Under the pieces are notes generated by a model. That model worked only from the letters and a program-made list of their open reading frames with translations, was not told where the DNA came from and did no database searches. DNA of 64,000 nucleotides, taken from the NCBI RefSeq assembly GCF_006345805.1, contig NC_043007.1, positions 65,162,001 to 65,226,000 of the forward strand, in the 5' to 3' direction. Positions 8,291 to 55,569 of the stretch are shown here, piece by piece; position 1 is the first letter of the stretch, and the number at the start of each line of letters is the position of its first letter. Source of the DNA: Octopus sinensis (taxonomy: Eukaryota). Made by a program: the position numbers and the translations under genes.

Positions 8291-9127
8291 TATGCAGCAG
8301 CCCAGCATCAATCGACCTTACCATCCCGCTGCTAATTGATGTCACCTCTTCATCTCCGTCTCCTTCTTCACTCTACCTCCCACTCCTCCCCTTCTCTAAT
8401 CATATTCCAGTCAATAGATTACTTCGTCTAGAATGTATGTCAAAATTGCGTGTCTATGTGCATGTGCATGTTAGTCTATGTAATCGTGTGTGTGTGTGTG
8501 TGTGTGTGTGTGTGTGTGTGTGTGTGTGTGTGTGTGTGTGTGTGTGTGTGTGTATGTGTGAGTGTGTGTGTGTTTAGAAGGCTGCCAATACGCAAATACA
8601 TAGATATATACAGATACACAAAACCACCTCTGCTACTGTTATAACATTGATTTGTACTAAAGCTTTCGGTTGTTCCTATATATAACTGATGACGTATATC
8701 TAAGCACTTCTCCACCCCCACTCGCTTTTGTCTGTCTTTCTGTCTATGTGTCTGTCTTTCATTCTCTCTCTCTCGTTATTTCTCTGTCAAATATACATAA
8801 ATGCACGCATGCACACACGCACATACACACACACACACACACACACATACGAAAATATCAGTCTCCATAGAAAAAAATATGTATGAATTAGTGTGTGTGT
8901 GTGTATATATATTTGGAGGTGTTTGTGTATGTATATTTACATGTGTGTGTATGTATATATAATATATATTTACATATAATTCGAGAGTGTATATATATAC
9001 ACAAACACATACACGCACAGACACAGACACGCTCACTCACACACACACATACATACACGCGTGTGTGTGTGTCTGAGTGTGTGTGTATGTATGTATGTAT
9101 GTATGTATGTATGTATGTATATATATA

Positions 9128-9313
9128 TTTTTTTTTTTTCCCTGTCTTCCCTTCTCGGGATCTTTCCTTCTCCTATGTTTCCGACGAAGAGCTCCGCTCG
9201 AAACGTCAGACCCTCCTTCTTCCCTTCTTTCCTGAGCGTCCAATAATACTTTATTTGTTCCACGTCCTTGCGTTGTTGTTTTTTTGTTTTTGTTTTCTTG
9301 TTTGGATTAACTT
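9128..9313 (+). mobile_element. Penelope-like pLTR/retrozyme-type fragment embedded in (TA)n
   Basis: ~185-bp cassette flanked on both sides by (TA)n and containing a minimal hammerhead core. Confidence 0.6.
9177..9211 (+). ncRNA. Minimal type I hammerhead ribozyme-like motif
   Basis: GTTT-CCGACGA-A-GAGC tcc GCTC-GAAA-CGTC-AGAC: stem I GTTT/AGAC, stem II GAGC/GCTC, palindromic loopless stem III (ACGT), cleavage triplet GTC ending 9207; U4C core variant. Confidence 0.7.
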
Positions 9314-9960
9314 TATATATATATATATATATATATATATATATATATATATATATATATATATATTCTGTACTTCTTGGTGCGTCTTGCCACTATCAAA
9401 CTTTCTCTATATCACACCCGCGTTCTGTCCGTTTCGCTGTCTCTGTCTGCCTGCCTGCCTGTCTATCTCTCGAATTTTCTCCCGTTTTCGAGGATACGTT
9501 ATTATCCTGTTTCTATTCAAATGTTTCTACATTTATCCGTCTGCCTCTCTCTTTTACTCCCTCTTTCTCCTTATACGTGTCCTTGGCTTTTTCCTACTTT
9601 CACTTTCCAAATGATACTTCTCCCCATCTCCATTGCCATTAATCTCTTATGGTTTATTTCCACTCTTCTCTCTCCCTCTCATTCTCTCTCTACTTTTTTC
9701 TCTTGCACTCTCACTTTCTCTATGTCTATATGTCAATATATAACTGCTTCCCTCTTTCCATCTGTCTGTTTCTCGGCCTCTCACGCTTTCTCCTCTTTAT
9801 CCTTCTCATATCTCCCCCCCCTCTCTCTCTCTCTCTGTATGTGTGTGTGTATCTATATTCTATATCTGTATATATATGTATGTGTGTATTTCAATCTATC
9901 TTTATATCGCTCCTTCTAACTACAACTCTTTCCCATTCTTCTGTGTGTGTGTGTGTTTGC

Positions 9961-10418
9961 GTGTGTGCGCGTTCGCGCGCGTGTCTCTCAGTGTATCCTT
10001 TACCTTAATAGCTAAAACAACCATTCTATTTGTGTGGGCCTATCGTTTTGTCTCACCACCAGCCTCCTTGTTCGCCATTGATTTTCGGTCTTCCTCACCT
10101 AGGTCCTACCTACCTATCTATATATCTATCTATCTATCTATCTATCTATCTATCTTATCTATCTATCTATCTATCTCATCTATCTATCTGTGTGCGCGTT
10201 CGCGCGCGTGTCTCTCATGTATCCTCTTTACCTTAATAGCTAAAACAACCCATTCTATTTGTGTGATTTTTTGCCTATCGTTTTTCTCACCAAGCCTCCT
10301 TGTTCGCCATTGATTTTTCGGTCATTTTCACTAGGTCCTACCTACCTATCTATCTATCTATCTATCTATCTATCTATCTATTATCTATCTATCTATCTAT
10401 CTATCTATCTATCTATCT
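9961..10418. repeat. Tandem duplication of a ~230-bp unit ending in (TATC)n
   Basis: gtgtgcgcgttcgcgcgcgtgtctctca...ctaggtcctacctacc present near 9961 and again near 10190. Confidence 0.9.
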
Positions 10419-11084
10419 GTCCCCTGTCTGTCTGTCTGTCTGCCTGCCTGTCCTGCCTGCCTGTATGCTGCCTGCCTGTCTGCCTGTCTGTCGTTGCTCT
10501 CTCTGTAAATATATATATATATATATATATATATATAGATATATATATATTCTATATATATATATGTGTTGTGTGTATATATGTGTTTATATACATATAT
10601 ATATATGGATGGATAGATAGATGTATACATACACACACATACATATATATATGAATATACATACAATACATGTATATATATATATATATATATATGTATG
10701 CATGTATGTGTGTGTGTGTGTGTGTGTATGCATTTATTTATCTTTCAAGCTACTACTTACTCATCCAGCTGGTTTAGCTATTGTATTGCGTACACTGCAT
10801 AGCATTCACTGGGTGTACACAAATGCATATACACGCAACACACGTACACACACATAGACACAAACATAGATATATATACACGCATACATAAATGTGTCTG
10901 TATGTGTGTGTGTGTGTATGTGTGTGTATGTGTGCATGTGTGTGTGTGTGTCTGTGTGTGTAATGTACAGAGCAGTTTTTCTCCTCCTCTGCAGTATATC
11001 CATCGATTCATGGCAAGTCGCTAGCGTAATTTTACGATTCATTCACAATATGTCACGAACTACTACTATTCCACACTATAACTA

Positions 11085-53086: not shown

Positions 53087-53240
53087 AATTAAAAATGAGG
53101 GTGTCTAAAACACACCAACATGCTGAAATAGCAGTCGAAACTCTGACTATAAAACCACGTTAAATGTTCATATCGCACCATGAGGTGCGATATGAACACT
53201 TGATAATTTCGACACTTAAATATCGATATTATCCTCATAT
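53087..53240. repeat. (TA)n-embedded cassette with perfect 15-bp hairpin; related copy at 54424-54805
   Basis: aattaaaaatgagggtgtctaa...atcgatattatcctca shared by both copies. Confidence 0.8.
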
Positions 53241-53541
53241 ATAAATATATATATATATATATATATATATATATATATATATATATATATATACAATATT
53301 TATAATTACGAGTATAATTATAATTAGGGTTCAGCAAAGATTTGCTTTACCACATACCGAAGTTTAGAAATAGCAGCCAAAGAACCTTAGCTATTTCTTC
53401 AACTATAAGAAGAGACTCCCAGACAAAAACAGTGCCGAATTCTACTTGGTGAAATTAATGATTACTAGTTAATTAATTAATTTTACCCATTATTATATAT
53501 ATATATATATAATATATATAATATATATATATATATATATA

Positions 53542-54330
53542 TATATATTATATATATATAAATTAAGAAATGGAGATGCTATTCAAACACAGATGTTATT
53601 CAAATAATTTATACTTCCCGCATATGTTTCGAAAAAAGCATTGAGATTATTCTGGCAGGGATAAAAATGATGTAAAACAATGCAATCATCTTGTCAGGGA
53701 AAAAAAAGGAACAAAACTCATCCATAAACCATTTTAACCGAATGTGATTACCGCGGACGTAAGTATATGATGTAAGGGTTAAGCTCGCAAGTTATTTTTT
53801 AAAAATTAAGGGTGAAAAGATATAATGTGCTAGATGAATGGGAATAAAGTTTAAAAGCGTGTGCGTGATTGTACGTGCATCTGATATGTATGGATTTGTG
53901 TCTCCATACTGTGGGTATTGGGGTATCACTACCTTCTACGTACATCTATTTAATACTGAGGTAGTTTCATTTATGACGACGTACTCCTGTATTTGTCTGA
54001 GTGACGGGTCATTCGGGTGCTTAGCTAAAATGCGGATGTCAAGTCGATCCAGTGTGCCTTTATGTTGGTCTTTGGCATGTTGTAGAGTATGGAGGACTGT
54101 TTTTTTATTGTCATATTGTCTCAAATTGTCATTTAGTCTCTCCGTAATGCTTCTAAATGTCTCACCAATGCATGTCATGTTCTTGCCTTATAAGCATCTT
54201 CTATGCACCTCATAATTGAAACATCCCTAGTATTAAATAGGAGATATACAAAGAAAGTAGTGTTACCTCAATGCCCACAGTTTATACATACACAGGTAGG
54301 TTTGTTAGTAGGCTGCTATATAGACGTGTA
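53542..54330 (-). mobile_element. Penelope-like element 3' end: GIY-YIG domain, pLTR with hammerhead remnant, inverted partial copy
   Basis: TCIGETFRSITERL..LQHAKDQH..IRILAKH..LRQIQEYVVI..VLNR; minus TTCC-CTGACAA...GCATTG/CAATGC...GAAA-CATATG-CGGGAA at 53615-53701; 54210-54285 is an inverted copy of 53908-53976. Confidence 0.85.
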
Positions 54331-55569
54331 TATATATATATATATATATACACACGTCTACATAATATATTTATATACATATATATATATATATATATAT
54401 ATATATATATATATATATATAACAATTAAAAATGAGGGTGTCTAAGAGACACCAACATGCCGAAATAGCAGTCGAAATTCTGACTATAAAAACCACGTTA
54501 AGAGCTCATATCGTACCATGAGATAAGACAGAGGGACAAAATATACAAGCAAAACTTATTGAATAATTCAAGATCCTGGATTTCTGGTTTTGCTTTAAAT
54601 AAGCTTTACCGTCATCAATTGAATATATCAAGGGTACATAAATACAGATATATATATATGCAGAACAAACGATATACTTACATATACGAACGTCCATACA
54701 TAAATACATATGTACGTATATTGTTAAAAATTATTACCTTTGTACGGTATTTTTTTCATGCTGGCCACTTGATAATATTGATACTTAAATATCGATATTA
54801 TCCTCATATATATATATATATATATATATATATATATATATATATATATATATATAATATATATATATATATATATATATATATAAATAGTTGGTAAATA
54901 GATATATAAGTAAACAGATAGATAGGTAGATGGATAGGTACATAGGTAATTCGGACAAATAAGCATGCACACACACACATACATACACAAAAGACTGAAT
55001 CACATGACCTAATGCATACATGCACACTTCACGCACACACACACACTCACAAAGACACATATGGAGACGCACATCCCTACATAACAGACGCACGTATATA
55101 TATATATATATATATATATATATATATATATATATATGCATACACACAGACACGCGCATACATACATACATACATACATACATACATTCATACATACATA
55201 CCTACATACATACATACATACATACATTCATATATACATATATATATGTGTGTATACACATGCACACTGACGCACACACGTGCGCACAAACAAACAAAAA
55301 GAACGCAGCTCCGATAACGGGCAGCTAACGACTATTGAGGAGGTTACCAGAAGCAACAAAAAGTTTAGAAAAAAAAGAGGAAATGAGTGGAAATCGAACC
55401 GGTGAGTGTGTTGATTAATGAAGCATTAAAACAGAACGACTATCTCTAGACACAATAAAATATGCTTCAACACACAAATTCACATAAAGAATCTTGCAAA
55501 CCAAATAAAAAAATGTGTGTGGGTGTGTGTGGTGTATGCATATAATACTCTTAAACATACACAGATGCG

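Follow-up and report, generated by a model that had tools for sequence, protein, structure and literature searches.

Hammerhead relics of likely Penelope-like origin in octopus (TA)n repeats, including a reverse-order, likely split-core form

The 64,000 nt of Octopus sinensis DNA analysed here (GCF_006345805.1, NC_043007.1:65,162,001-65,226,000, forward strand; genome 2.72 Gb), referred to below as the window, contain short cassettes in or beside (TA)n microsatellites that carry complete or partial hammerhead ribozyme cores. With a probability of about 0.72, we read these cassettes as copies of repeat families whose 3' ends are fixed on (TA)n and whose 5' ends are scattered, likely the 5'-truncated tails of Penelope-like elements (PLEs); most would carry a type I hammerhead motif, and some (at 18116, 18955 and 43447) a reverse-order hammerhead with a likely split core that is predicted to cut. 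A preliminary description of the window had listed nine hammerhead-like sites, of which seven proved to be copies of real repeats with hammerhead parts and two (37558 and 8662) failed. PLE hammerhead relics as a class, and their targeting of (TA)n, are known and published biology; the new part of this window is the reverse-order, likely split-core hammerhead, for which covariation and a footprint in the 5' ends provide the support and whose cutting is predicted. Type I motifs occur in families A, B, D, F and H and reverse-order motifs in families C1 to C6; family E is a truncated PLE (Table 1). Hammerhead positions are numbered in the usual way, and published systems are described from the portions of the sources that were available to us.

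Repeat families with 3' ends on (TA)n

We searched the genome with each listed site as query and sampled 25 to 30 loci per family from the best 40 matches of each search (which biases the samples towards the query; the candidate numbers given below are first-look counts from these searches and not copy numbers). The unbiased sample consisted of 100 random 10-kb stretches of the genome (the random Mb), and motif controls were dinucleotide shuffles in 200-nt blocks. The cassettes have fixed 3' ends, scattered 5' ends and TA at their junctions; in families B, H, C1-C3 and C5 the fixed 3' ends carry no poly(A), the 5' ends are scattered, and partial tandems and inverted pairs occur. Free 3' ends are followed by (TA)5 or longer in 28/28 copies of C1, 21/23 of C2, 23/24 of C3, 10/19 of C5 and 27/30 of A. 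Counted from the end of the query, TA follows in 27/30 searched loci of A, 13/30 of D and 1/25 of E; the low figures for B (4/25) and H (9/25) count against this reading of the cassettes. Within the random Mb, 3' ends are followed by TA in 11/15 copies of A, 3/8 of D, 2/2 of H, 1/3 of C3 and 7/7 of C5, as compared with 226/19319 random positions (1.2%) and with 0/12, 5/129 and 55/131 copies of control repeats, the last being a point inside a repeat resembling a short interspersed element (SINE); one control repeat had no copies reaching the query end.

The motifs themselves are enriched. Strict type I motifs number 22 in the random Mb against 1-6 in 10 shuffles (7.6-fold). TA-bounded segments of 50-1500 bp (n=431, 187 kb) hold 16 strict motifs against 0-3 after shuffling, as the preliminary description had anticipated, and the rest of the random Mb (785 kb) holds 14 against 1-3; loose counts of CUGANGA followed by GAAA are 59 versus 10-20 in TA-bounded segments and 159 versus 93-136 elsewhere. 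This enrichment, together with TA adjacency well above that of random positions, bears out the claim that PLE-type families place their 3' ends on (TA)n, and (TA)n targeting is well supported. A blast census of the random Mb with 19 seeds, which gives a lower bound, recovered at least 91 relics per Mb, a density of one in roughly 11 kb or higher; the earlier estimate for the window, about one relic in 7 kb, lies near this genome norm. Runs of (TA)6 or longer number 1094 per Mb in the window versus 1222 per Mb elsewhere. For PLE relics in (TA)n, two published facts are confirmed in the octopus genome and a density is added.

According to Craig et al. (PMC8557442), Naiads insert preferentially into (TA)n and Neptune shares this bias, and Frangieh et al. 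describe a PLE protein that nicks AT-rich DNA and starts reverse transcription internally (PMC11167929), which fits the fixed 3' ends of the cassettes. By the enzymology of known PLEs, the endonuclease would nick (TA)n and the reverse transcriptase (RT) would copy the RNA from a fixed point and stop early, so that most copies would keep only 100-300 nt around the ribozyme; TA on both sides would come from a target tract split or duplicated by the insertion, with later slippage. We consider it unlikely that the elements in turn make (TA)n tracts and cause microsatellites to expand (through RT slippage or repeated target duplication, for example), as had been suggested: young copies usually have TA at both junctions, and one tract can become two with each insertion, but in the random Mb a relic recognised with the 19 seeds was found within 100 nt of only 70 TA tracts out of 684 (a lower bound), TA grows inside elements too (in the untranslated region [UTR] of family E and in the SINE-like control), and the insertion preference is already published for Naiads and Neptune. 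A leading role of relics in making TA tracts is unsupported.

A reverse-order hammerhead in families C1 to C6

Two minus-strand sites, at 18105-18155 and 18945-18990, had been listed as hammerheads; their boxes are real, but they stand in reverse order, which had been overlooked. Both belong to one insertion of family C1 (1160 candidates), in which GAAA stands before CUGAUGA. The upstream repeat of this insertion is 5'-truncated, and a TATA-like box lies at 18535. In the complete fold the upstream strand of stem II runs from 18178, U16.1 is at 18159, a conserved downstream strand lies near 18081, and the predicted cut falls between 18158 and 18157; the second copy, at 18955, is 5'-truncated a few bases upstream of its predicted cut and is therefore without the upstream stem II strand. 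A further decayed relic, with CUGAUGA at 43447, begins about 35 nt after a (TA)n run, has one relative seen (L247, 80%) and had likewise been overlooked. Related families are C2 (2070 candidates), C3 (1492, 99% alike), C4 (one locus), C5 (3376) and C6.

Throughout the C families, a UH site immediately before the GAAA block pairs with each of the other two blocks. The RNA would run from the 5' strand of stem II through the cleavage block and the GAAA block to the CUGANGA block (S-G-C order, as opposed to the C-G-S order of type I), stems I, II and III would all cross, and the bases after A9 would pair back into an extra helix and not into stem II. Order and pairing are shown by covariation; the three-dimensional fold is a proposal. 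In the consensus sequences of C1-C5 (pairing tables for the five families were anchored by script), stem I is paired in 25/25 cells and stem III in 20/20 (first four positions), with two-sided changes between families. Per copy, the paired fraction is 0.97 for stem I and 0.98 for stem III versus 0.34-0.57 and 0.07-0.62 in slid registers (115 copies; one C2 and five C5 loci had no anchor and were left out). A pair-count tool gave 93% paired cells for C3-C5 (27 rows) versus 37-59% in slid registers, with 7/14 pairs changed on both sides; this count was confined to C3-C5, since the MAFFT alignment set C1 and C2 two columns out of register with them. These figures are tempered by the small number and the kinship of the families that supply the covariation, and by the fact that kinship by itself can outscore the shuffles of the tool.

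The exact catalytic core is present in 29/30, 28/29, 30/30, 23/25 and 1/1 copies of the five families; all catalytic positions are retained despite turnover of the stems, and the variation at N7, H17 and the nucleotide following A9 is that of hammerheads. A compact reverse-order descriptor found 4 hits in the random Mb versus 0-1 in 20 shuffles, so that intact-looking copies in the genome, scaled from this very small count, would be of the order of ten thousand; with a loose descriptor covering six orders, S-G-C was not separated from shuffles (5 vs 0-4). Other ways of wiring the site were tried and rejected. A type GCS reading of the fold at 18116 fails because in C3 and C4 stem I covaries with the upstream UH strand and not with the downstream one; a type II motif, and two decayed type I motifs in tandem, were dropped on the same ground, that it is the upstream and not the downstream UH strand that covaries with stem I.

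The strand before GAAA has two possible partners for stem II, namely the G-run after A9 and a strand 20-27 nt upstream of U16.1. The upstream strand is Watson-Crick paired in 546/560 cells and changes with its partner, and its first base in every family is a G facing C11.1; for the G-run the Watson-Crick count is 245/560 cells (112 copies; three more C1 loci had no anchor). In all five families a sequence between GAAA and stem I offers the G-run an alternative partner (-8.2 to -10.8 kcal/mol). Neither in C6 (three loci) nor at 43447 can the nucleotides that follow A9 form the first stem II pair (10.1-11.1); in C6 five Watson-Crick pairs form with the upstream strand, and at 43447 this strand is decayed. 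We consider it likely, on these pairing patterns, that stem II is made with the upstream strand and that the core is split between A9 and G10.1.

The fold at 18116 and 18955 could instead be a plain type-SGC hammerhead in which the G-run makes stem II and the upstream strand is an inhibitory helix until refolding. The G-run pairs in 19/20 consensus cells of C1-C5 with one two-sided change, three Gs are invariant across the five-family alignment, and the linker of 3-6 nt between stems I and II is as in HRIMA-1; once G-U pairs are admitted, the bases after A9 pair with the stem II partner in 471/560 cells of C1-C5. It also detracts from a split core that the helix closing the break is invariant in C1-C4, weak in C5 (46/100 Watson-Crick cells) and shifted in the published Naiad ends described below, so that a helix tying the two ends of the break is a tentative proposal. 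Weighed against the Watson-Crick counts for the two strands, the other partner of the G-run in all five families, and the inability of C6, 43447 and the Naiad ends to form a G-run stem II, the plain arrangement seems to us quite unlikely.

Among the closest known systems is the type-SGC hammerhead HRIMA-1 with its variants (Eckert et al. 2023, PMC10085705), with which the C families share the S-G-C order, crossing stems, a full core, a short linker between stems I and II and a fourth helix near them. Unlike it, the C families are repeats of animal retroelements, first-look candidates for each family number over 1000, and their upstream strand makes the better stem II. The sites at 18116, 18955 and 43447 have the S-G-C order with a full core, and stems I and III covary (in few related families); a stem II strand within 1-2 nt after CUGANGA pairs less well in C1-C5 than the upstream strand does, and in C6 and at 43447 it is impossible. 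In the model of Eckert et al. (PMC10085705), one or two bases at most were assumed to intervene between CUGANGA and its stem II strand, and the C fold is therefore a variant of type SGC and not a member of it. Reports of non-circularly permuted hammerheads have so far come from environmental RNA and one bacterium. Our literature search, which left subscription papers and key supplements mostly outside, found no non-circularly permuted or split-core hammerhead in animal genomes; in their available portions, PMC13725137, PMC10162972 and the retrozyme preprint cited below contain no precedent for a reverse-order or split-core fold, and PMC13282606 makes no mention of ribozymes. If the fold cleaves, a non-circularly permuted hammerhead would be common in animal retroelements, and the CUGANGA strand would not have to lead directly into stem II.

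Family C6 is a 736-bp non-coding tandem ending on (TA)n, seen on the plus strand at L114:2380-2560 and 3116-3296 and present also at L181, L210, L302, L018 and L007; stem III covaries within it, and a GAUGA / CUGA box pair at L114 recalls a kink-turn.

5' ends, predicted cutting and a link to Naiads

The 5' ends of family C3 were collected by searching with sequence downstream of the ribozyme. The 40 matches represent 37 insertions; upstream DNA was taken for 27, of which five extend beyond the stretch examined, leaving 22 resolved ends (one counted in the phase of its own unit). Nine of these 22 fall at +5 to +14 after the predicted cut, versus 0.6 expected from the local rate (P about 2e-8), and with ten further insertions added by hand the count is 10/32. 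Other TA steps near the cut have at most one 5' end each. The pile is most simply read as the product of a template that the ribozyme had cut and that was then joined to its target at the first TA; trimming of the template RNA by self-cleavage would leave the 5' ends of young copies piled up just after the cut. The pile would then be a genomic handle on what PLE hammerheads do.

Several observations count against this reading: no C3 5' end lies at +1 after the cut, the TA step at +8 offers microhomology to the target, and the window copy at 18955 starts upstream of its predicted cut. The reverse-order structure might accordingly be conserved for another job (for example, RT binding or setting the RT stop) and not cut at all; a structural block to RT could leave ends 5-14 nt past the predicted cut just as well, and PLE minimal hammerheads cleave poorly in vitro (PMC4209133, available part). 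A purely structural role leaves the retention of every catalytic position amid stem turnover, the hammerhead-like variation at N7, H17 and the post-A9 base, and the exact core in nearly all copies unaccounted for, and we hold it to be improbable. Adapter-bearing ends in one sequencing run did not fall on the predicted cut, a result that is neutral on cleavage.

In C1, C3 and C5 units, splice-like signals seen by eye lie on either side of an internal stretch, the acceptor immediately preceding the upstream strand of stem II; in the window, donor-like and acceptor-like signals lie near 18703 and 18180 (minus strand, C1), and others occur in units at L328 and L359. A spliceosomal intron that is retained is a trait of PLEs with an endonuclease (EN+) in general. 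Contigs covering parts of C1 and C3 (seven presumed-RNA runs and one other) showed no spliced joint and no pile of ends, which is neutral on expression. A core joined by splicing was rejected: no CUGANGA stands before a donor-like GT in the units read by eye. At two of 30 C1 loci (L041, minus; L057, plus), the 3' end of an L1/Tx1-like long interspersed element (LINE) with a poly(A) signal is joined to C1; the two junctions differ, follow the TATA-like box by about 30 nt and precede the predicted cut by about 350 nt, and they represent either template switching or site-specific insertion.

The predicted ribozyme of the C families has a counterpart in published elements. The supplement of PMC8557442 describes Naiad_Obim and Naiad_Ovul as inserting into (TA)n and annotates Naiad_Ovul with 'HHR_half_core', and the available part of the paper reports no canonical hammerhead in Naiads. 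Inspected by eye, the 3' ends of both elements (PMC8557442 supplement) have the same reverse-order fold: stem I and the upstream stem II each measure 6 bp, stem III measures 5 bp, and the nucleotides following A9 have no more than two pairs open to them. Naiads and the C families further share the (TA)n preference, partial tandems of the pseudo-long terminal repeat (pLTR) kind, inversions and a fold at the 3' end; the sequences of C1-C6 differ from the Naiad ends. A decayed short copy of a published octopus Naiad 3' end was found at locus L075 (minus, near 1782-1795); it is followed directly by a family D-like relic in the opposite orientation. Should the shared fold be functional, it would answer why Naiads seemed to be without a hammerhead.

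It tells against our reading of the cassettes that no PLE coding frame lies within C1-C5 units (among the matches listed). The single frame with an N-terminal GIY-YIG domain and a C-terminal RT, a Naiad trait, was not found in C1-C5, which are non-coding (among the matches listed), and these families are therefore at most non-autonomous partners of Naiads, whose proteins may move the C units in view of the fold at their 3' ends. None of the families A, D, H, F and C1-C6 had an autonomous partner among the loci examined. Non-coding tandems with a hammerhead in each unit, argued to be PLE-derived, are known as non-LTR retrozymes (Li et al., 10.64898/2026.07.22.740005, available part); the C units resemble them in these respects and differ in their reverse order in place of type I, periods of about 740-860 bp, (TA)n ends and 5' truncation. 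We give even odds to the wider proposal that a hammerhead with a fourth wiring (reverse order, a break between A9 and G10.1, and extra helices) is active in animal genomes; it would be the missing Naiad ribozyme, cutting its template in vivo, and would occur in at least seven non-coding, intron-bearing passenger families with thousands of (TA)n copies.

Type I relics and remaining sites

The sites at 9177, 13178, 35294, 46990 and 53615 are type I hammerheads of the PLE kind, mostly decayed or 5'-cut, and we consider it likely that most short cassettes are leftover 3' tails of Penelope-type elements in TA repeats with a predicted self-cutting RNA. The order CUGANGA, stem II, GAAA, UH and stem I was found in the consensus or in relatives of all five type I families, and in the window it is complete only in the copy at 9177. 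This copy is also the sole site in the window to pass the strict descriptor; it has the core variant CCGACGA (U4C) at 9181-9187, GAAA at 9200, an extra A after A9, a 4-bp stem II, a palindromic stem III and a predicted cut after 9207. U4C is common to 28/30 loci of family A (975 candidates), and A6U occurs in most loci of family D (1851 candidates). At 13178, stems I and III are damaged, the hammerhead of the family B consensus (587 candidates) being intact. The 3' half noted at 46990-47003 (minus) is a true half, 5'-cut at the start of stem II, and the whole motif fits 6/25 loci of family H (24 candidates). The copy at 53615 has its core from 53697 with G8A, GAAA at 53630 and a mutated UH, and the relatives L205 and L206 have complete cores.

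Table 1. Features assigned in the window, with positions counted from its first nucleotide
Feature	Coordinates	Strand	Details
Half-site GAAAGCTT	8660..8667	-	Single copy, no family, chance frequency; not counted as ribozyme relic
Family A, short PLE-type 3' relic	9133..9313	+	Complete minimal type I hammerhead; (TA)26 from 9314
Family B, decayed type I relic	13140..13310	+	Core 13178-13184, GAAA 13198
Family C1, non-coding partial tandem insertion	17898..19003	-	Period about 840 bp, between two (TA)n runs
Complete reverse-order hammerhead fold	18078..18182	-	GAAA 18144, CUGAUGA 18116-18110
Second reverse-order copy	18919..19003	-	GAAA 18983, CUGAUGA 18955; predicted cut 18997/18996
Family D, decayed type I relic	35221..35408	-	Core 35325-35319 with A6U, GAAA 35305; TA on both sides
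Family E, 5'-truncated PLE fragment	37257..37676	-	End of GIY-YIG frame (37533-37676) and 3' UTR
Further decayed reverse-order relic beside (TA)n	43378..43512	+	U16.1 43404, GAAA 43419, CUGAUGA 43447
Family H, 3' half of type I hammerhead	46895..47020	-	Stem II, GAAA 47003, palindromic stem III, 3' strand of stem I
Family F, decayed type I relic	53552..53747	-	Long stem II and loop II; (TA)n follows
Separate PLE fragment upstream of family F	53897..54334	-	GIY-YIG end 53948-54184 and inverted 5' piece 54208-54334

The A, B, D, F and H sites resemble the minimal type I hammerheads that Cervera and de la Pena described in 2014 (PMC4209133) in their C-G-S order and short palindromic stem III, which is seen in A, B, D, H and F in the whole family or in part of the copies. 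The published elements also have an extra base after A9, many sequence families per genome and inverted pairs, as here, and the available text puts the number of minimal motifs in each animal genome in the thousands, most of them single, truncated copies; cores like U4C of family A and A6U of family D do not appear in that text. The extra base and the G10.1-C11.1 pair both occur in A and D, and F has the G-C pair with no extra base. Two points fit the type I assignment less well: the motifs of B and H are without G10.1-C11.1 and their extra base is not clear either, and most window copies are too decayed for activity. Families A and D have stem II and downstream motifs in common and are therefore related, so that of the several independent Penelope-derived families claimed earlier, the several PLE-type families stand and the independence of A and D does not. 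U4C and A6U are high-copy core variants; Lunse et al. 2017 reportedly treats variants of this kind. Elsewhere in the genome, type I motifs with a UUGANAA core lie 170-520 nt downstream of GIY-YIG frames at L132, L163, L178, L251 and L277, and this known core variant is tied to PLE frames in this genome.

A minimal PLE hammerhead would be expected in the pLTR, behind a PLE frame, and would be expected to cut as a dimer. For one of these families a coding frame may supply such a link. At three of 25 loci (L233, L238 and L245), family B lies 480-800 nt downstream of a GIY-YIG-like frame on the same strand; the query frame scores E 0.005 for GIY-YIG in Pfam, below the cut-off. It weakens the assignment to PLEs that no PLE coding frame was linked to A, D, H or F in the loci examined. 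Upstream of family F, the fragment at 53897..54334 belongs to a family with another 3' UTR than family F, and the TA-bounded cassette with the 53615 site is therefore composite; a relative of family F at L111 matches PF01541 with E 3e-8. The GIY-YIG ends at 37533-37676 and 53948-54184 are C-terminal, as in PLEs with a C-terminal endonuclease (Neptune-type and others). The fragments may be Neptune-like, a label based in part on an upstream CxxC-type motif in a family consensus.

Two sites failed. The weak hammerhead listed at 37558 (plus) is the antisense of GIY-YIG coding sequence, where CTGATGA occurs and stems I-III do not. The minus strand at 37533-37676 matches a GIY-YIG end (tblastn, E 1e-10), family E continues on both sides, and the (TA)n tract at about 37371-37480 sits inside its 3' UTR; the 41-residue window piece of family E alone gave no GIY-YIG hit in Pfam. 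The half-site listed at about 8662-8672 (minus) is an unsupported single copy near chance: it was found once in the genome (by a search that skips common words), no (TA)6 run lies between 8081 and 9314, and half-sites of its kind number 71 in the window versus 40-69 in 50 shuffles (mean 54). That all the boxes are chance matches in an AT-rich, repeat-dense genome is very improbable, since this explanation holds for 37558 and probably for 8662, and could draw on the 54 half-sites in an average shuffled window and on the loose long-span S-G-C descriptors that do not beat shuffles (5 vs 0-4), but is refuted by family data for the other seven of the nine sites, which lie in multi-copy families with covarying stems and with a consensus or relatives more complete than the window copies, in a genome where strict motifs stand 7.6-fold above shuffles.

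Rfam at gathering scores matched nothing anywhere in the window and, at E up to 10, gave no hammerhead match for 9140-9260 or 18070-18200; an E-value scan of the window returned mostly microRNA models on microsatellites (among the best 150 of 369 matches). The TA-bounded cassettes at 53088-53245 and 54422-54806 are related to each other (about 91% alike); one of them contains an inverted repeat, and no hammerhead is assigned to either. A TA-bounded piece of an abundant repeat, with no hammerhead core seen, lies at 53295-53493 and is found in inverted arrangements at other loci. CTGANGA occurs by chance in several copies of another repeat, at 25410, 30828 and 31292 on the minus strand and at 39567, 39743 and 40661 on the plus strand.

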